NCBI RefSeq assembly: GCF_013122565.1
Contig: NZ_CP053258.1
From: Escherichia coli
Lineage (GTDB): Bacteria; Pseudomonadota; Gammaproteobacteria; Enterobacterales; Enterobacteriaceae
Length of the DNA stretch: 64,000 bases
Strand: one strand, 5' to 3'
The notes beneath the pieces are model-generated. The model was not told the DNA's origin and searched no databases. It saw only the letters and a program-made list of their open reading frames with translations. Shown here piece after piece: positions 926 to 56,941 of this stretch. The position numbers and the translations under genes are program-made. Position 1 is the first letter of the stretch. Each line of letters opens with the position of its first letter.

Positions 926-955
926 AAAAAAGCACCTGAAAAGGTGCTTTTTTAC
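926..955 (-). terminator. Rho-independent terminator downstream of cysK
   Basis: Hairpin agcacct/aggtgct flanked by A and T runs just past the cysK stop. Confidence 0.6.
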
Positions 956-3122: not shown

Positions 3123-4121
3123 ATGATGCAGGATTTGCGTCTGATATTAATCATTGTTGGCGCGATCGCCATAATCGCTTTACTGGTACATGGTTTCTGG
3201 ACCAGCCGTAAAGAACGATCTTCTATGTTCCGCGATCGGCCATTAAAACGAATGAAGTCAAAACGTGACGACGATTCTTATGACGAGGATGTCGAAGATG
3301 ATGAGGGCGTTGGTGAGGTTCGAGTTCACCGCGTGAATCATGCCCCGGCTAACGCCCAGGAGCATGAGGCTGCTCGTCCGTCGCCGCAACACCAGTACCA
3401 ACCGCCTTATGCGTCTGCCCAGCCCCGTCAACCGGTCCAGCAGCCGCCTGAAGCGCAGGTACCGCCGCAACATGCTCCGCGTCCAGCGCAGCCGGTGCAG
3501 CAACCCGTGCAGCAGCCTGCCTATCAGCCGCAGCCTGAACAGCCGTTGCAGCAGCCAGTTTCGCCACAGGTCGCATCAGCGCCGCAGCCAGTGCATTCAG
3601 CACCGCAATCGGCACAACAGGCTTTCCAGCCTGCAGAACCCGTAGCGGCACCACAGCCTGAGCCTGTAGTGGAACCGGCTCCAGTTATGGATAAACCGAA
3701 GCGCAAAGAAGCGGTGATTATCATGAACGTCGCGGCGCATCACGGTAGCGAGCTAAACGGTGAACTGCTTCTTAACAGCATTCAACAAGCGGGCTTCATT
3801 TTTGGCGATATGAATATTTACCATCGTCATCTTAGCCCGGATGGCAGCGGCCCGGCGTTATTTAGCCTGGCGAATATGGTGAAACCGGGAACCTTTGATC
3901 CTGAAATGAAGGATTTCACTACTCCGGGTGTCACTATCTTTATGCAGGTACCGTCTTACGGTGACGAGCTGCAGAACTTCAAGCTGATGCTGCAATCTGC
4001 GCAGCATATTGCCGATGAAGTGGGCGGTGTAGTGCTTGACGATCAGCGCCGTATGATGACTCCGCAGAAATTGCGCGAGTACCAGGACATCATCCGCGAA
4101 GTCAAAGACGCCAACGCCTGA
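3123..4121 (+). CDS. zipA: Cell division protein ZipA (FtsZ membrane anchor)
   Basis: ORF 3072-4121; start placed at internal [21 protein letters not shown] (N-terminal TM), P/Q-rich linker, C-terminal FtsZ-binding domain. Confidence 0.93.
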
Positions 4122-6427: not shown

Positions 6428-7422
6428 GCTTTATCGGCGCTGCTTTCCTGCTGCGCCTGTAACTGTTCGGTCTGGCGTTTGTATCGACGCGCCAGCACCG
6501 CACAGACCATCAATTGGATCTGATGGAAAATCATCAGGGGCAGCACCATCATACCGATCACCGATGTGGGGAACAGAATGTTTGCCATCGGGATGCCATT
6601 TGCCAGACTCTTTTTCGAACCACAAAAGACGATAGTAATTTCATCTGCTTTATTGAAGCCCAGTCGGCGTGCCATAAAGACGTTAACTACAATCACGATA
6701 GCCAGAAGAACGCAGCTGGCCACCACGATAAACAGCAATGATCCCCAGCCAACTTTATGCCAGATACCATTAACGACGGCTTCGCTGAACGCTGTATAAA
6801 CCACCAACAGAATGGACGTCTGGTCAGTTTTCGCAATCCATTTTTTATTGCGCGACACCCAGTCACCAATCCACGGCCGGGAAAGATGCCCTAACACAAA
6901 CGGCAGCAACAGTTGCAGCATAATTTTACCGACCTGCTCAAGGCTGCCCCCTGCACCGTGAACATTCATCACCAGGCCAACCAACAATGGTGAAAGGAAA
7001 ATCCCCAGCAGGCTGGATGCCGACGCAGAACAAACCGCCGCCGCGACGTTACCGCCCGCCATTGACGTGAAGGCGATTGCAGACTGCACGGTCGCGGGGA
7101 GAATGCACAAGTAGAGAAAACCGGAGTAGAGCATCGGGTCGACATTTACCGGTTTCCACCAGGCAAACAGCACGCCCAGAATCGGAAACAGCACGAAGGT
7201 GCTGCACATTACCCACAAATGCAGTCGCCAGTGACCACCGCCAGCAATAATCGCCTCACGCGACAACTTCGCGCCGTGCATAAAGAACAGCAGGGCAATC
7301 GCTGCGGTGGTCAGATTTTCAAAGAAGGGGACGAAATCGCCTCTGGCCGGAAAGAAAGAGGCCAACAACACCACCGTGATCAGGGTTAAGGTGAAAGGAT
7401 CGAGGATACGAAAAAGTTTCAT
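6424..7422 (-). CDS. yfeH: Putative bile acid:Na+ symporter-family (BASS) transporter YfeH
   Basis: 332-aa polytopic membrane ORF MKLFRILDPFTLTLITVVLLASFFPARGDF... Confidence 0.88.
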   Translation of the reverse strand: MKLFRILDPFTLTLITVVLLASFFPARGDFVPFFENLTTAAIALLFFMHGAKLSREAIIAGGGHWRLHLWVMCSTFVLFPILGVLFAWWKPVNVDPMLYSGFLYLCILPATVQSAIAFTSMAGGNVAAAVCSASASSLLGIFLSPLLVGLVMNVHGAGGSLEQVGKIMLQLLLPFVLGHLSRPWIGDWVSRNKKWIAKTDQTSILLVVYTAFSEAVVNGIWHKVGWGSLLFIVVASCVLLAIVIVVNVFMARRLGFNKADEITIVFCGSKKSLANGIPMANILFPTSVIGMMVLPLMIFHQIQLMVCAVLARRYKRQTEQLQAQQESSADKA

Positions 7423-7465
7423 AAAGACTCCAGATGATCGATGCTTTCATTGTGCGTTGTTCTGA

Positions 7466-7494
7466 TTGATAAATAAAACTGAATTGCTTATCAA
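7466..7494. promoter_or_regulatory. Inverted repeat TTGATAA-N15-TTATCAA upstream of yfeH; candidate operator
   Basis: Palindromic arms read directly in sequence about 45-70 bp upstream of the yfeH start; function inferred. Confidence 0.25.
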
Positions 7495-8050
7495 TTTGTG
7501 CGCGAGGAGTGTGAGTGAGTTGCTCGCTCGCTTCGACTGGTTGGCAGAGCGGGGGAGGATATCCCGGATGAGACAAATAAGACGTTCGACAAGAGAATCA
7601 GGTGACTACAGAAAAAATCACAGGATGTTATTACTGCTGATGTTCATGTCGGTTTTCGCGTTATCAGAACTGGTTTTAGAACTGCTATTTAATCGATAAT
7701 GCCATTCTGCAGGAAAGCTTTACCTACTTTATTATTTGCGGTGTGGTAAAACCTGGTCACCAGAGGCAGGTTTAATACCAGACGCTGTCTTTTATCAGAT
7801 ATCCCATGTAAATAATAAATGCAATGAATATTAATTCATTATGTATTTATTTTGTGATTGTTTGGTGTTACTAGTTTGTTGGACAAATAACAACTCTAAC
7901 TAATACATAAACCTTGCATAGTGACAGAGTATCGATCTGAATGTTTTCAACATTGATATCAAATTGCAATTGATATCCGTGGTAAAAAGTATTGGTAAAT
8001 TTGATGAATTTCCGGATATTTAAAGGGGCGGCTCAAAGACGAAGGGGAAG

Positions 8051-9307
8051 ATGGTGAATCTAAAACTACAGTTAAAAGTTCTTTCATTTCTGCAATTCTT
8101 TTTGTGGGGAAGTTGGCTCAACACATTCGGTTCTTATATGTTTATCACGCTGCGTTTTAAGGGCGAAGATATAGGCGCAGTCTACAGTACACTGGGTATC
8201 GCAGCATTAATAACATCAACGTTATTTGGTATCGTGGCCGATAAATGGATTAGTGCTAAATGGATATATGCCGCTTGTCATTTATTTGGCGCGATAACAT
8301 TATTTATCGCAGCATCGGTTACCACGCCTTCGGCAATGTTCATTGTCATTTTACTTAACTCTCTTGTGTATATGCCAACACTCGGTTTGAGTAATACAAT
8401 TTCCTATTACCGCCTACAAACAGCGGGGATGGATATTGTGACAGAATTTCCGCCAATCCGTATCTGGGGCACGATTGGATTTATTGTCGCAATGTGGGCG
8501 GTTAGCCTGGCTGGTTTTGAATTAAGTCATATGCAATTATATATCGGTGCGGCGGCTTCATTAGGCTTGAGCCTGTTCACGTTGACTTTACCAACTGTAC
8601 CAGTGGCGAAATCTAACCAGGCGCAAGGAATGATAGATGTTCTCGGATTGCGTGCATTTACACTGTTTAAAAACAGCAAAATGGCGATTTTCTTTATCTT
8701 TGCCATGCTGCTCGGGGCAGAGTTACAAATTACCGGGATGTTTGGTAATACATTTCTCCACAGCTTTGAGAGCGTTCCAGAGTTTACCAATAGTTTTGTT
8801 GTTACCCATGCTTCTATTCTGTTATCAATTTCTCAGATATCCGAAGTCTGTTTCATTCTTGCCATTCCTTTTTTCCTGAAAAAATACGGTATCAAAAATG
8901 TCATGCTGATGAGCATGGTGGCCTGGATGCTGCGTTTTGGTTTATTCGCTTATGGCGATCCTTCATTCGGTGGTACCATTCTGTTAATTCTTTCGATGAT
9001 TGTTTATGGCTGTGCTTTTGACTTCTTCAATATATCTGGCTCGGTATTTGTTGAACAAGAAGTTGATCCATCGATTCGTAACAGCGCTCAGGGCGTTTTC
9101 CTGATGATGGCCAATGGTTTTGGTTGTATTCTGGGCGGTTTTATCAGTGGTAAAGTCGTCGATTATTTAACAACGGATGGCAATCCACAGTGGTCAACCA
9201 TTTGGCTGGTATTTGCCGGATATTCACTGGTTCTGGCTCTCGCATTTATGGTGTTGTTTAAATATAAACACAACGGTAACCCGACAACGTCCGGTCATTT
9301 CGCCTGA
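8051..9307 (+). CDS. Nucleoside:H+ symporter (NHS family), NupG/XapB paralogue
   Basis: 418-aa 12-TM ORF MVNLKLQLKVLSFLQFFLWGSWL...; by recollection closer to NupG than to the XapB encoded 2 kb downstream; AT-rich; GTG at 8054 is an alternative start. Confidence 0.85.
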   Translation: MVNLKLQLKVLSFLQFFLWGSWLNTFGSYMFITLRFKGEDIGAVYSTLGIAALITSTLFGIVADKWISAKWIYAACHLFGAITLFIAASVTTPSAMFIVILLNSLVYMPTLGLSNTISYYRLQTAGMDIVTEFPPIRIWGTIGFIVAMWAVSLAGFELSHMQLYIGAAASLGLSLFTLTLPTVPVAKSNQAQGMIDVLGLRAFTLFKNSKMAIFFIFAMLLGAELQITGMFGNTFLHSFESVPEFTNSFVVTHASILLSISQISEVCFILAIPFFLKKYGIKNVMLMSMVAWMLRFGLFAYGDPSFGGTILLILSMIVYGCAFDFFNISGSVFVEQEVDPSIRNSAQGVFLMMANGFGCILGGFISGKVVDYLTTDGNPQWSTIWLVFAGYSLVLALAFMVLFKYKHNGNPTTSGHFA

Positions 9308-9361
9308 TACGGAGTTTATCAAAATTAATAATGTTTTATAGGATTCGCAAAAGAGGAAGTT

Positions 9362-10273
9362 ATGGCAAATCAATTGTATAACCAGTGTCGGGTTTATTGT
9401 GCACCCTGGCGATTAGATGCTTTAAATTTAAATGATATCATTGATCAATGGATTGACGAGGGGCTGTTGCCGCCCCTGATCCATACTTTTCTTCCATATC
9501 GCGATGATGCCGGTGCCTCCAGTGAAGAAGAGATTTTTGTTAACGATGTCGCGAATATGGATAACAGTGTTGGGGTTATCGGTTATTTCGATGGTGGAAC
9601 CTATGATTCCGGTTATGCATGGGCTTTAGGGATGCCTGTTCACCTGGTAACGACAGACTTTCTTATATGGGCAGCGGGGAATTCTTCAGAGTTTTATCCT
9701 ATAAGTAAGCTGATGAATTATGTGGCAAAAGTGGTTTCTGTGTCAGATTCCGATACCAGTATCAGCAATTATCGTGAACAAACCGACGATATCATCAAGC
9801 GTGCGTTGCAAATTTTTCAACAAAATTTAATCGCCGACTTCGGCACGACGATTAATCCAGCAGTACCGGTTACTCCATTGCCGATTGAGTATGACTACTA
9901 TATTGATCCTAACTTTATGTATACCGAACCCTCTCGGGACTTACTGGTGAAGATCAAAGATGCGATCATTAGTGCAGGTAAGACTTTCATCGTTGGCGAC
10001 AACATGAATGATATTGCGACTGATATTGATAACTTAAGAAAATCCAGACAGGCCATCTTTTATTCCGATACCTTTGAGCCGAATGTTGACACCGGCATTA
10101 TGAATGGTATTGCCTATGCATTAGGACAGCAATCGATTATTTATTGTAGCAAGCAACAAAAATATCAATCTGCGCTCGCGACAGATTATTTAAATTTAAT
10201 GATTACCTGGTCGTCAACGGTGGCGCATTCATTTGCGGAACTTGAAACATTGATTGGTAACACAGAAAAATAA
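9362..10273 (+). CDS. Hypothetical protein with two repeats of a nucleoside 2-deoxyribosyltransferase-like (SLOG-like) motif
   Basis: 303-aa ORF; motif VIGYFDGGTYDSGYAWALGMPVHLV in the first half and AIFYSDTFEPNVDTGIMNGIAYALGQQSIIY in the second; N-terminal VYCAPW resembles the NDT IYFGAGWF motif; family assignment by eye only. Confidence 0.4.
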   Translation: MANQLYNQCRVYCAPWRLDALNLNDIIDQWIDEGLLPPLIHTFLPYRDDAGASSEEEIFVNDVANMDNSVGVIGYFDGGTYDSGYAWALGMPVHLVTTDFLIWAAGNSSEFYPISKLMNYVAKVVSVSDSDTSISNYREQTDDIIKRALQIFQQNLIADFGTTINPAVPVTPLPIEYDYYIDPNFMYTEPSRDLLVKIKDAIISAGKTFIVGDNMNDIATDIDNLRKSRQAIFYSDTFEPNVDTGIMNGIAYALGQQSIIYCSKQQKYQSALATDYLNLMITWSSTVAHSFAELETLIGNTEK

Positions 10274-10285
10274 TAGTTAATTTTA

Positions 10286-10328
10286 CTGATTATCAGGTGA
10301 GTGATTGCCTGATAATCAGCTTTTTGTT
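10286..10328 (+). terminator. Rho-independent terminator after the 303-aa ORF
   Basis: Perfect 12-bp inverted repeat ctgattatcagg / cctgataatcag with 10-nt loop, followed by cttttt. Confidence 0.65.
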
Positions 10329-10501
10329 AGCCACCAAAGAAAAATATACTGCCGTTATATTTCTCTGCCGGGGAACGATATGATCGATTTCAAAATTATA
10401 TTGAATATCTCTGGAAAATGTATTGGTCACTCGCGACTTTTTCTCGCTATAAAAAAATGTGACTCAGATCTAACGCATAATGCTTATTACAAGGACTTGC
10501 C

Positions 10502-11335
10502 ATGACCCAATCTCATTTTTCACAAAACCCGTGGTATTGCGCAGATATCATTCGTCGTCATAAACCAGACTTTACCCCACGCGTTGCGTTTATTTTGGGT
10601 TCGGGACTGGGAGCGCTGGCTGAACAAATAGAAGACGCAGTTGCCATTTCTTATAGCGATTTGCCGGGGTTTCCGGTGAGCACCGTACACGGCCATGCAG
10701 GAGAGTTGGTCCTCGGCGTGCTTTCTGGTGTGCCTGTAGCCTGCATGAAAGGTCGCGGTCATTTTTATGAGGGCCGGGGAATGACTGTCATGACTGATGC
10801 TATTCGCACGTTCAAGTTGCTGGGCTGTGAATTGTTGTTCTGCACTAACGCTGCAGGTTCGCTTCGCCCGGAAGTAGGGGCGGGTAGTCTGGTTGCGCTG
10901 AAAGATCACATTAATACGATGCCAGGCACACCGATGACAGGCCTTAATGATGAGCGTTTTGGTGAACGTTTTTTCTCATTAGCGAATGCTTACGATGCTG
11001 ATTACCGCGCCGTTTTACAAACCGTCGCGCATGAAGAAGGTTTTCCGCTGACAGAAGGGGTTTTTGTTTCTTATCCGGGGCCGAACTTCGAAACGGCGGC
11101 AGAAATTCGCATGATGCAGCTGTTTGGTGGCGACGTAGTAGGTATGTCTGTAGTGCCTGAAGTGATTAGCGCACGTCATTGCGAAATGAAAGTCGTTGCC
11201 GTGTCAGCAATAACCAACATGGCGGAAGGCTTAAGCGATGTGAAATTGTCGCATGCCCAAACCCTGGCTGCAGCAGAGTTATCACGACAAAACTTTATTA
11301 ATTTGATTTGCGGATTCTTACGCAAAATCGCCTGA
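10502..11335 (+). CDS. xapA: Xanthosine phosphorylase (purine nucleoside phosphorylase II)
   Basis: 277-aa ORF MTQSHFSQNPWYCADIIRRHKPDFTPRVAFILGSGLG..., PNP/MTAP fold. Confidence 0.93.
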   Translation: MTQSHFSQNPWYCADIIRRHKPDFTPRVAFILGSGLGALAEQIEDAVAISYSDLPGFPVSTVHGHAGELVLGVLSGVPVACMKGRGHFYEGRGMTVMTDAIRTFKLLGCELLFCTNAAGSLRPEVGAGSLVALKDHINTMPGTPMTGLNDERFGERFFSLANAYDADYRAVLQTVAHEEGFPLTEGVFVSYPGPNFETAAEIRMMQLFGGDVVGMSVVPEVISARHCEMKVVAVSAITNMAEGLSDVKLSHAQTLAAAELSRQNFINLICGFLRKIA

Positions 11336-11392
11336 AAACAATAAAAATGGCCTCGCGGATGGGGCCATCTCTCTGCGATAAGGAAACGAAAA

Positions 11393-12640
11393 ATGAATAT
11401 CGCAACGCGTTTAAAGGTAATGTCTTTCTTACAATATTTTATCTGGGGGAGTTGGTTAGTTACCCTCGGATCTTACATGATAAACACCTTACATTTTACC
11501 GGGGCTGATGTCGGTATGGCATACAGTTCTAAAGGCATTGCGGCCATTATTATGCCAGCCATTATGGGCATTATTGCCGATAAATGGTTACGGGCTGAAC
11601 GTACCTATATGCTGTGTCACTTAATTTGTGCCGGGGTGCTTTTTTATGCCGCCTCCGTAACTGAACCGAATATGATGTTCTGGGTGATGTTGCTTAACGC
11701 GATGGCTTTCATGCCCACGATTGCGTTATCCAACAGTGTTTCCTATTCGTGCCTGGCGCAGGCCGGATTAGACCCAGTCACCAGTTTTCCGCCAATCCGT
11801 GTTTATGGCACCGTGGGATTTATTGTCGCAATGTGGCTGGTGAGTTTATTGCATCTGGAGTTAAGTAGTGTGCAGTTGTATATCGCTTCTGGAGCATCTT
11901 TAGTGTTAGCGATCTATGCATTAACATTACCGAAAATTCCAGTGGCGGAACATAAAGCCAGTACGACGCTTTCCAGTAAATTAGGCCTGGATGCGTTTGT
12001 GTTATTTAAAAATCCGCGTATGGCGATTTTCTTTTTATTTGCTATGTTATTAGGTGCGGTACTGCAAATTACTAACGTTTTTGGTAATCCTTTCCTGCAT
12101 GACTTTGCCCGCAATCTTGAGTTTGCTGATAGCTTCGTGGTGAAATATCCATCCATTTTGCTCTCGGTTTCACAAATGGCGGAAGTCGGCTTCATTCTTA
12201 CCATTCCATTCTTCCTGAAGCGTTTTGGCATCAAAACCGTCATGTTGATGAGTATGGTAGCGTGGACGTTACGCTTTGGCTTCTTTGCCTTTGGCGACCC
12301 ATCGGCAGGTGGCTTTGTATTATTGTTGTTGTCGATGATTGTGTATGGCTGCGCGTTCGACTTTTTCAATATCTCCGGTTCAGTGTTTGTCGAGCAAGAA
12401 GTGGACTCCAGGATCCGCGCCAGCGCTCAGGGTTTATTTATGACTATGGTCAATGGCGTTGGGGCGTGGATTGGTTCTCTTCTGAGTGGCATGGCAGTTG
12501 ACTATTTCACGGTTGATGGCGTGAAAGACTGGCAAACCATCTGGCTAGTATTTGCTGCGTATGCACTGGCCTTAGCGGTGATTTTTGCCCTGTTCTTCCG
12601 TTATAAGCATGAACCTGATAAATGGCGCAGAAATCATTGA
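11393..12640 (+). CDS. xapB: Xanthosine permease (NHS family)
   Basis: 415-aa ORF MNIATRLKVMSFLQYFIWGSWLVTLGSYMINTLHFTG... directly downstream of xapA. Confidence 0.92.
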   Translation: MNIATRLKVMSFLQYFIWGSWLVTLGSYMINTLHFTGADVGMAYSSKGIAAIIMPAIMGIIADKWLRAERTYMLCHLICAGVLFYAASVTEPNMMFWVMLLNAMAFMPTIALSNSVSYSCLAQAGLDPVTSFPPIRVYGTVGFIVAMWLVSLLHLELSSVQLYIASGASLVLAIYALTLPKIPVAEHKASTTLSSKLGLDAFVLFKNPRMAIFFLFAMLLGAVLQITNVFGNPFLHDFARNLEFADSFVVKYPSILLSVSQMAEVGFILTIPFFLKRFGIKTVMLMSMVAWTLRFGFFAFGDPSAGGFVLLLLSMIVYGCAFDFFNISGSVFVEQEVDSRIRASAQGLFMTMVNGVGAWIGSLLSGMAVDYFTVDGVKDWQTIWLVFAAYALALAVIFALFFRYKHEPDKWRRNH

Positions 12641-12716
12641 CTCACTGATGTAAACAGGGTTTTCCTTGATTGCAATGTGCTAAGTTTGCAGCCTTACCCA
12701 TACCGCGTGGAGCGCA

Positions 12717-13607
12717 ATGATTATGGAAGGTACGCATCGTATTGATCTCAAGTTATTGCGCTATTTTCTTGCGGTCGCAGAAGAACTTCACTTTGGGCGG
12801 GCCGCTGCGCGGCTGAATATGTCGCAACCGCCATTAAGTATTCATATTAAAGATCTGGAGCAACAGTTGGGCACGTTGCTGTTCGTTCGTCATTCGCGCA
12901 GTGTGGCGCTCACTCATGCGGGGAAAATTTTACTGGAAGAGTCACGTCGTCTGCTGGCTAATGCCAGTCAGGCGTTGGCACGAGTAGAACAGATCGGTCG
13001 TGGTGAGGCAGGGCGCATTGAGCTGGGCGTGGTGGGAACCGCAATGTGGGGGCGAATGCGTCCGGTAATGCGGCGGTTTTTGAAAGAGTGCCCTAATGTT
13101 CATGTCTCATTTCGTGAAAAATCACCAGGGATGCAAATGGCATTGCTCGAGCGGCGGGAGCTGGACGCGGGTATCTGGCGGATGGCAATTGAACCCACGA
13201 CGGGATTTACCAGTCTGCGATTACACGAATCTTCGTTTTTGGTGGCGATACCGGAAGATCATCATCTGGCTTGCGAAAACGCTATCCCGTTAATGGCATT
13301 ACGCAATGAATACTTTGTGACGCTGCCATCGGTCCATTCCGACTGGGCGTTTTTACAGCGTGTCTGTCAGCAGGCAGGGTTTTCACCGATGATCGTTCGG
13401 GAGGCCGTAGAACCGCAAACCGTACTGGCGATGATCAGTATGGGGCTGGGTGTGACATTAATGGCAGATAGCTATGCCCAAATGAGCTGGCCGGGTGTGG
13501 TATTTCGTCCACTCGAGGAACGTATTCCAGCAGATTTGTATATTGTTTATGAACAGCAACAGGCAACACCAGCGCTGGAGAGATTAGTTAATGCTTTGAT
13601 AGCATGA
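12717..13607 (+). CDS. xapR: LysR-type transcriptional activator of xapAB
   Basis: 296-aa ORF with N-terminal LysR HTH (LKLLRYFLAVAEELHFGRAAARLNMSQPPLS); start could be the second Met at 12723. Confidence 0.9.
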   Translation: MIMEGTHRIDLKLLRYFLAVAEELHFGRAAARLNMSQPPLSIHIKDLEQQLGTLLFVRHSRSVALTHAGKILLEESRRLLANASQALARVEQIGRGEAGRIELGVVGTAMWGRMRPVMRRFLKECPNVHVSFREKSPGMQMALLERRELDAGIWRMAIEPTTGFTSLRLHESSFLVAIPEDHHLACENAIPLMALRNEYFVTLPSVHSDWAFLQRVCQQAGFSPMIVREAVEPQTVLAMISMGLGVTLMADSYAQMSWPGVVFRPLEERIPADLYIVYEQQQATPALERLVNALIA

Positions 13608-13626
13608 AAGAAGATATCGCAGATAG

Positions 13627-13656
13627 CAAAAAAGCGCCTTTAGGGCGCTTTTTTGC
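13627..13656. terminator. Bidirectional rho-independent terminator between xapR and lysV
   Basis: aaagcgcc-ttta-gggcgcttt hairpin with A run upstream and T run downstream. Confidence 0.6.
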
Positions 13657-13658
13657 AT

Positions 13659-13734
13659 TGGTGGGTCGTGCAGGATTCGAACCTGCGACCAATTGATTAA
13701 AAGTCAACTGCTCTACCAACTGAGCTAACGACCC
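13659..13734 (-). tRNA. lysV: tRNA-Lys (anticodon UUU)
   Basis: Reverse complement reads GGGTCGTTAGCTCAGTTGGTAGAGCAGTTGACTTTTAATCAATTGGTCGCAGGTTCGAATCCTGCACGACCCACCA. Confidence 0.95.
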
Positions 13735-13738
13735 GAAG

Positions 13739-13814
13739 TGGTGGGTGATGACGGGATCGAACCGCCGACCCCCTCCTTGTAAGGGAGGTGCTCTCCCAGC
13801 TGAGCTAATCACCC
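13739..13814 (-). tRNA. valY: tRNA-Val (anticodon UAC)
   Basis: Reverse complement reads GGGTGATTAGCTCAGCTGGGAGAGCACCTCCCTTACAAGGAGGGGGTCGGCGGTTCGATCCCGTCATCACCCACCA. Confidence 0.95.
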
Positions 13815-19342: not shown

Positions 19343-19350
19343 CAGGCGTA

Positions 19351-19382
19351 AAAAAGCCGGGGAATTATCCCCGGCTTTTTTA
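19351..19382. terminator. Bidirectional terminator between pdeA and nupC
   Basis: aaaaaagccgggg-aatta-ccccggctttttt, perfect hairpin with A and T tracts on both sides. Confidence 0.7.
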
Positions 19383-39870: not shown

Positions 39871-40112
39871 TGCTGACAGGCAGTATATTGATGTAAAGGA
39901 TTTAACTCCCTCCAGCCGACAATTTTTTATGACCACAATACGACAGGTTGTGGTCATAAAATTATTTGGCGCTCGCGGTTCTATAAACTCGCATTTTATC
40001 TTCCTCAAAGTAAACCGCAATAACCCGTGTCATCACAAATCATTTATTATGTTATGTTTTATGGTACGCTTTAAAAAGCGTAATCATACCCTTACTTGTA
40101 AATCACCGGCGC

Positions 40113-56005: not shown

Positions 56006-56941
56006 ATGGAACCCCTTCGTGAAATAAGAAATCGACTGCTTAACGGCTGGCAACTATCAAAAATGCATACTTTTGAAGTGGCTGCCAGGCATCAGTCCTT
56101 CGCCCTGGCGGCAGAGGAATTGTCGCTGAGCCCCAGTGCGGTAAGTCACCGTATCAATCAGCTGGAAGAAGAATTGGGTATTCAGTTGTTTGTTCGTTCC
56201 CATCGCAAAGTGGAATTAACGCACGAGGGGAAACGCGTTTATTGGGCGCTAAAATCGTCGCTGGATACCCTGAACCAGGAAATTCTTGATATCAAAAATC
56301 AGGAGTTATCGGGAACGTTAACTCTGTATTCCCGGCCCTCTATCGCTCAATGCTGGTTGGTGCCCGCATTAGGTGACTTTACACGCCGCTATCCGTCTAT
56401 TTCGCTCACCGTGCTCACTGGTAATGACAATGTCAATCTGCAACGTGCCGGAATCGATTTGGCAATCTACTTTGATGACGCGCCGTCAGCGCAACTGACT
56501 CATCACTTTCTGATGGATGAAGAAATCCTGCCTGTATGTAGCCCGGAATACGCTCAAAGACATGCTTTAACCAACACGATAATTAACCTGCGCCACTGTA
56601 CGTTGCTCCATGACAGACAGGCATGGAGCAACGACTCCGGAACGGATGAATGGCATAGTTGGGCGCAACATTATGAGGTTAATTTGCCGACATCTTCTGG
56701 AATTGGCTTTGATCGCTCTGATTTAGCCGTTATCGCCGCAATGAATCATGTTGGGGTGGCGATGGGAAGAAAACGCCTGGTACAAAAAAGGCTTGCCAGT
56801 GGTGAGCTCGTCGCGCCGTTTGGCGATATGACGGTGAAATGCCATCAGCATTATTACATCACCACATTACCGGGCAGGCAGTGGCCAAAAATTGAAGCGT
56901 TTATTACCTGGTTAAGAGAACAGGTAAAAACCACTTCATAA
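56006..56941 (+). CDS. dsdC: LysR-type activator of dsdXA
   Basis: ORF 56000-56941; start placed at MEPLREIRN (MSMEPL at 56000 also possible); LysR HTH FEVAARHQSFALAAEELSLSPSAVSHRI. Confidence 0.92.
   Translation: MEPLREIRNRLLNGWQLSKMHTFEVAARHQSFALAAEELSLSPSAVSHRINQLEEELGIQLFVRSHRKVELTHEGKRVYWALKSSLDTLNQEILDIKNQELSGTLTLYSRPSIAQCWLVPALGDFTRRYPSISLTVLTGNDNVNLQRAGIDLAIYFDDAPSAQLTHHFLMDEEILPVCSPEYAQRHALTNTIINLRHCTLLHDRQAWSNDSGTDEWHSWAQHYEVNLPTSSGIGFDRSDLAVIAAMNHVGVAMGRKRLVQKRLASGELVAPFGDMTVKCHQHYYITTLPGRQWPKIEAFITWLREQVKTTS

Follow-up and report, generated by a model that had tools for sequence, protein, structure and literature searches.

The window analyzed here is a 64-kb stretch of Escherichia coli DNA (64,000 nucleotides, given as one strand), and the element under study is a hairpin in the spacer upstream of xapA. 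The hairpin follows a permease gene and a gene related to nucleoside 2-deoxyribosyltransferases (NDT-like), which are referred to below as the pair. The genes on either side of it are as follows:

8051–9307, plus strand: NupG/XapB-like nucleoside:H+ symporter (permease), first gene of its unit (PF03825, E = 2e-165)
9362–10273, plus strand: NDT-like open reading frame (ORF) of 303 aa (weak PF05014 match; 'nucleoside 2-deoxyribosyltransferase' in the annotation of relatives)
10502–11335, plus strand: xapA (xanthosine phosphorylase), first gene of the next unit (ATG at 10502)

The gene order downstream is xapA, xapB and a LysR regulator gene in the xapR position, and yfeH, on the opposite strand, precedes the pair. 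These gene calls match the RefSeq annotations of near-identical E. coli genomes. The NDT-like ORF ends with a TAA codon (10271–10273) that is followed immediately by an in-frame TAG (10274–10276).

The NDT-like proteins form a narrow family (P0001–P0026; 303–320 aa) that is found in Escherichia, in Citrobacter and, at 43–50% identity, in a few Clostridiales and metagenomic sequences. PF05014 covers only the N-terminal part of the protein, and the conserved C-terminal half has no family match. The ORF of the window carries an 18-bp in-frame deletion at 9613/9614, between direct repeats GGTT(G/A)TGCATGGG, that removes the residues GCAWEV, including the glutamate of the D-x-G-x-x-x-E motif as aligned with solved NDT structures. 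The NDT-like relatives are all 309 aa in length and have this motif intact. Since the motif glutamate is deleted here and intact in all relatives, the NDT-like enzyme of this strain is probably inactive.

The end of xapB (12600–12640) reads ...KHEPDKWRRNH* in the window and ...KHEPEKMAQKSLAH* in E. coli IAI39 (415 vs 418 aa), a difference that points to a small frameshift close to the end of the gene, also present in LHM10-1. A short G+C-rich inverted repeat (ATGGCC...GGCCAT) in the xapA–xapB spacer (11345–11370) is conserved in IAI39. The gene for a yfeN/Tsx-like outer-membrane channel, located between yfeH and the permease gene in IAI39 and in the Escherichia lineages L021 and L022, is missing here (~642 bp), and its remnants at ~7671–7797 consist of short ends with 72–78% identity, with the junction at 7740/7742. 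The yfeR gene is likewise absent from the window. The stretch between 7750 and 10500, comprising the pair and its flanking spacers, has a G+C content of 32–44%, well below the ~51% that is usual for E. coli.

The hairpin and its tail consist of four segments:

10286–10297, plus strand: 5′ arm of the predicted terminator stem, CTGATTATCAGG (= ctgattatcagg), the exact reverse complement of 10308–10319
10298–10307, plus strand: spacer between the arms, tgagtgattg (10 nt), forming three more pairs in RNA
10308–10319, plus strand: 3′ arm of the predicted terminator stem, CCTGATAATCAG (= cctgataatcag), the perfect reverse complement of the 5′ arm
10320–10328, plus strand: T-rich tail CTTTTTGTT (ctttttgtt), seven T in nine bases, adjoining the 3′ arm

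Direct reading and an inverted-repeat search agree on arms of 12 bp with 100% complementarity. An earlier reading of this DNA, made from the sequence alone (hereafter the sequence-only reading), had described a perfect 12-bp inverted repeat at 10286–10328, and its arms, 10-nt spacer and T-rich tail are confirmed as claimed. In the plus-strand RNA, the spacer contributes U-G, G-U and A-U pairs to the 12 Watson-Crick pairs of the arms, resulting in a 15-bp stem with a 4-nt GUGA loop (10301–10304). Five of the 15 pairs are G-C (41% GC); at the bottom of the stem, G-C accounts for two of three pairs in E. coli, and the bottom pair is U-G in other lineages. The folding energy of the hairpin alone (10286–10319, plus strand) is −20.0 kcal/mol. 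Within a 66-nt plus-strand context it is −23.9 kcal/mol, compared with −9.0 ± 2.5 kcal/mol for shuffled sequences (z = −6.0), and none of 200 shuffles was as stable. The RNA tail, CUUUUUGUU, contains seven U in nine bases; its first base is a C, such that the U-tract begins 1 nt past the stem.

The hairpin starts 12 nt past the TAA of the NDT-like ORF. On its 3′ side, 54 nt separate it from the stretch with homology to the K-12 XapR sites, and the xapA ATG follows at a distance of 173 nt. In a scan of 7300–13800, it was the strongest terminator-like site. A search of the same interval with Rfam covariance models (E ≤ 1) returned tRNAs only, with no match to the hairpin.

Perfect inverted repeats of at least 12 bp with a loop of 3–12 nt are found at eight loci in the window (926–953, 10286, 13626–13656, 19349–19382, 39926–39960, 56601–56633, 59178–59209 and 60962–60990). 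Dinucleotide-shuffled 64-kb windows contain 0.03 such repeats per shuffle (three of 100 shuffles had one), and the repeat at 10286 is therefore far beyond chance. It had also been called unusually perfect, a description that does not apply within the window, where it is one of eight such hairpins. The other seven resemble terminators too, and the main difference is that the hairpin at 10286, having no upstream A-tract, is one-directional. The hairpins at 926, 13626, 19349 and 59178 are flanked on both sides by A- and T-tracts, as in two-directional terminators, and the one at 13626 lies between xapR and a tRNA-Lys gene.

NDT-to-xapA spacers were collected from every lineage and the hairpin region was aligned. 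E. coli sub-lineages, E. albertii and three further Escherichia lineages (L004, L021 and L022) together contributed nine distinct versions. The 12-bp core is fully paired in all nine versions, pairing being kept over ~10–15% sequence divergence, and the flanks and loop are far more variable than the stem. The loop is GUGA or GCGA, matching the GNRA pattern, in eight versions. The changes within the stem are C-G to U-G at two positions, U-A to U-G, and A-U to G-U, as well as one double change of A-U to G-C in L022 and L004. Each of the four pairs that vary on a single side shows a transition that gives G-U on the plus-strand RNA and an A-C mismatch on the minus strand; by our own estimate, based on about five independent events, the chance of such a one-strand bias without constraint is at most ~0.03. 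The folding energies of the nine versions range from −14.1 to −20.0 kcal/mol on the plus strand and from −3.4 to −15.5 kcal/mol on the minus strand. A formal covariation shuffle test on the nine sequences was not significant (54 of 500 shuffles reached the observed score), and the conservation argument is therefore built on the direction of the wobbles and the strand asymmetry.

All nine versions have a T-rich tail, of uneven quality (CTTTTTGTT in the window, CTTGTTGTT in LHM10-1, CTTTTGGTT in IAI39, CTTTTAATT in L022, TCTTTGTTTTTTT in E. albertii and TTTTTGTTTTTTT in L021). The T-tract is interrupted in LHM10-1, IAI39 and L022, and is long in E. albertii and L021. With a 51-nt hairpin query (E ≤ 10), one place per genome was found in 15 of 5426 complete E. 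coli genomes. BLAST searches of the 5426 genomes with the 331-nt spacer and the 51-nt hairpin gave no hairpin copies outside the 15 genomes that carry the pair. According to the sequence-only reading, the same palindrome upstream of xapA in genomes without the pair would have spoken against it; the palindrome is absent from them, an outcome in favor of that reading. In K-12, a divergent yfeN precedes xapA and there is no hairpin, which counts as a further point for a terminator.

Two promoter regions flank the unit that ends at the hairpin:

7952–8022, plus strand: predicted promoter of the pair, a copy of the xapA promoter by alignment with it; XapR-site-like region 7952–7996, TTGGTA 7992–7997, 19-nt spacer, TATTTA 8017–8022
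10383–10453, plus strand: xapA promoter region, homologous to the K-12 xapA promoter by alignments to K-12 and starting 54 nt past the T-tract; distal and proximal XapR-site regions 10383–10427, TTGGTC 10423–10428, 19-nt spacer, TATAAA 10448–10453

The K-12 xapA promoter contains two XapR sites, one overlapping the −35 element and one upstream (PMC7205307). Local alignment of 7952–7996 with 10383–10427 gave a score of 33, compared with 16 ± 2.5 for shuffled sequences (0 of 2000 reached 33), and was the best among 3174 window segments. Both promoter copies follow the pattern TTGGT(A/C), 19 nt, TAT(T/A)(T/A)A. Each E. coli or other non-albertii Escherichia locus spanning both promoters contains two exact copies of the box AAANGTATTGGT, one preceding the permease gene and the other preceding xapA. 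In E. albertii it is exact before xapA only, and the copy before the permease gene is one base off (AAAAAATATTGGT). The same promoter type is found 5′ of the pair in Citrobacter (L011, ~3262–3350) and in L018 (~283–372), and an alignment of six promoters needs no internal gaps. Between the hairpin and the XapR-site region there is a second, imperfect inverted repeat (10338–10348 and 10356–10366, AGAAAAATATA and TATATTTCTCT, 91% complementary), which overlaps the sequence aligned to the K-12 'GCCAATACAG' box.

Given that a copy of the xapA promoter, including both XapR-site-like regions, precedes the pair, the two units are probably co-regulated, and XapR, or a close equivalent, would activate the pair as it does xapAB. 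The expectation of a separate promoter for the pair within the AT-rich region at 7700–8050 agrees with this placement, the predicted promoter being located at the 3′ end of that region. The same promoter copy runs counter to the proposal that the hairpin insulates the pair from XapR control. The hairpin would separate two co-regulated units rather than shield a XapR promoter from foreign transcription.

The hairpin is read here as a Rho-independent (intrinsic) terminator, on the plus strand, of the two-gene unit formed by the permease and NDT-like genes, with a probability of roughly 0.8. A stable stem-loop is followed on its 3′ side by a U-rich tract, the element is located 3′ of a co-oriented gene and before the next promoter, and pairing rather than sequence is conserved, in the transcribed sense only. 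The identification of this element as an intrinsic terminator in the sequence-only reading is thus supported by the plus-strand hairpin, the T-rich tail, the position 12 nt after the stop codon, and the strand-specific wobble and compensatory changes. On leaving the NDT-like ORF, RNA polymerase would transcribe 10286–10319, and the transcript would fold into the 15-bp stem closed by the GUGA tetraloop. The tail would then form a weak RNA-DNA hybrid, leading to release of the transcript near 10325–10330, about 54 nt 5′ of the distal XapR-site region and ~120 nt 5′ of the xapA −10 element. The hairpin would in this way split the locus into two units, each with its own xapA-type promoter. Both termination itself and its efficiency are predictions from sequence.

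The element resembles canonical E. coli Rho-independent terminators in having a stable hairpin with a T-rich tract at once 3′ of it, a position a few nucleotides after a stop codon, an orientation that agrees with the upstream gene, and a structure that is conserved while the sequence drifts; its tetraloop fits GNRA. In contrast to canonical terminators, the stem is longer and more AT-rich (15 pairs, five of them G-C), and the T-tract begins after a C and is interrupted in some lineages.

The AT-rich stem, the C as first tail base and the interrupted T-tracts of relatives are points against the terminator reading. Because the T-tract is interrupted in close relatives, termination may be only moderately efficient, and some transcription may continue into xapA. 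The same three features favor a leaky terminator with much read-through, or an element that is mainly a 3′-end stabilizer guarding the permease–NDT mRNA from 3′ exonucleases. The permease gene, the NDT-like gene, xapA and xapB would then also share a single long transcript, with the hairpin serving for tuning and not for insulation. Additionally, both units appear to share a promoter type, and strict insulation may therefore not be needed. However, a T-rich tail is present in every lineage and is long in E. albertii and L021, whereas a pure stabilizer needs none, and xapA retains a full promoter of its own, homologous to the characterized one of K-12. We consider this explanation unlikely, but, given the AT-rich stem and the interrupted T-tracts, more probable than the other alternatives to the terminator reading. 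Also unlikely is a deliberately leaky terminator between two XapR-type promoters that sets the ratio of the upstream unit (a second nucleoside permease and an uncharacterized NDT-like enzyme with two domains) to xapAB. If the leaky-terminator reading were true, the ancestral Escherichia xap locus would be a nucleoside-salvage module of four genes and two promoters, and K-12 would have kept only one half of it, in divergent form.

It had also been suggested that the palindrome might be a protein-binding site or a recombination scar. In a DNA operator, each arm would serve as a dyad site bound by a regulator such as a Fur-like protein. Each arm is itself palindromic (CTGAT-N-ATCAG) and contains a GATAAT-like hexamer, the arm centers are 23 bp apart, and the pattern CTGATNATCAG has eight matches in the window with at most one mismatch, compared with 1.7 expected; the exact matches, however, are the two arms only. 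In L022 and L004, the arms are changed to TTGGTTATCAG and CTGATAGCCAG, such that the half-site and the palindromy within each arm are lost while pairing is kept by a compensatory G-C. Half-sites are altered in L021 as well as in L022 and L004 while the pairing stays. Moreover, wobbles that keep pairing on one strand only would be meaningless for the recognition of double-stranded DNA, and the site does not coincide with a promoter, since it follows a stop codon and the XapR-site region begins more than 50 nt further downstream. An operator is thus very improbable, and a Fur box or similar dyad operator was rejected, since the arm motif is neither conserved nor exactly recurring.

The history of the locus bears on the second suggestion. 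The flanks of the window are 97.7% identical to K-12, whereas the 6.1-kb region 7486–13614, which includes the pair and xapA, xapB and xapR, is only 70–78% identical to K-12 xapABR. The pair-carrying form in the 15 complete E. coli genomes (including IAI39 and CE10) has the same arrangement in E. albertii and in the Escherichia lineages L004, L021 and L022; in L022, yfeR, yfeN, the pair and xapABR are present all together. The permease gene, the NDT-like gene, xapA, xapB and xapR are 85–96% identical among pair-carrying lineages, in step with yfeH (87–91% between the same lineages), and K-12 xapABR is at a roughly equal distance from all of them. Since the divergence tracks that of yfeH, the simplest reading is that the genus has long carried the pair haplotype and passed it on vertically, and the K-12-type xapABR looks like a derived or replaced form. 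The pair had been described as inserted, a view that is at odds with its presence in E. albertii and other Escherichia, with the parallel divergence of yfeH and with K-12 xapABR as the outlier. Repeated transfer of xapR together with xapA among gamma-proteobacteria has been reported (PMC2395238). A literature search found no paper on the pair-carrying variant of the xap locus, and none linking a deoxyribosyltransferase with xapA or E. albertii.

The pair is also found in other genera. A scan of genome contigs gave seven loci, of which the Clostridiales and betaproteobacterial ones (36–53% identity) were left out of the hairpin comparison. The permease gene always precedes the NDT-like gene, including in Citrobacter and several metagenomic contigs, where the neighboring genes differ, and the Escherichia hairpin is absent beside the pair in Citrobacter and the metagenomic contigs. 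The NDT stop codon is followed by an unrelated hairpin in L011, L015, L018 and L020. The hairpins of Citrobacter L011 and metagenomic L015 and L020 are terminator-like with a T-rich tail, and that of L018 has no T-tract. Those in L011, L015 and L020 are similar to the Escherichia hairpin in their position directly past the NDT-like stop and in their presumed role, but are unrelated to it in sequence. Recurrence of the role without the sequence argues against a cassette end or a recombination site; on this comparison, the Escherichia hairpin arose or was recruited locally and does not belong to a transferable cassette. The LysR gene neighboring the pair in Citrobacter was rejected as a XapR orthologue (27% identity over 120 aa).

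A recombination scar or mobile-element end marking insertion (or deletion) of the pair beside xapA would be expected at a boundary, and homology to the K-12 yfeN–xapA spacer does restart right 3′ of the T-tract (~10326–10335), making the hairpin the last element of the segment that is absent from K-12. Comparison of this junction with pair-less K-12, as proposed in the sequence-only reading, therefore places the hairpin at the edge of that segment but does not indicate an origin by recombination, since gain or loss of any promoter-to-terminator unit gives the same boundary position. No partner repeat is found at the other boundary, and no integrase, transposase or recombinase in the locus; the repeats that truly flank the pair are the two promoter copies. 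The hairpin has no further copy in the 5426 genomes and does not travel with the pair to Citrobacter and other contexts, a tblastn search for the NDT-like protein on plasmids gave no match, and the pair is not a recent insertion. Finally, a passive scar would not hold strand-specific pairing across the genus. This explanation is accordingly given very little credence. A REP/BIME or other dispersed repeat was rejected, as REP elements, which share with this hairpin an intergenic location after the 3′ end of a gene and an imperfect-to-perfect palindrome, occur in hundreds of dispersed copies with a shared consensus, whereas this hairpin is single-copy and restricted to the 15 pair-carrying genomes of 5426.

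Taken by itself, the terminator hairpin has little weight, being one more unannotated intrinsic terminator, and it is useful mainly for defining operon boundaries in a rare form of the E. coli and E. albertii xap locus. The promoter copy upstream of the pair predicts that the XapR (xanthosine) regulon includes an uncharacterized NDT-like enzyme as well as a second transporter of the NupG/XapB type. The context of the hairpin also suggests that the textbook K-12 xapABR is a divergent, reduced version of the locus.
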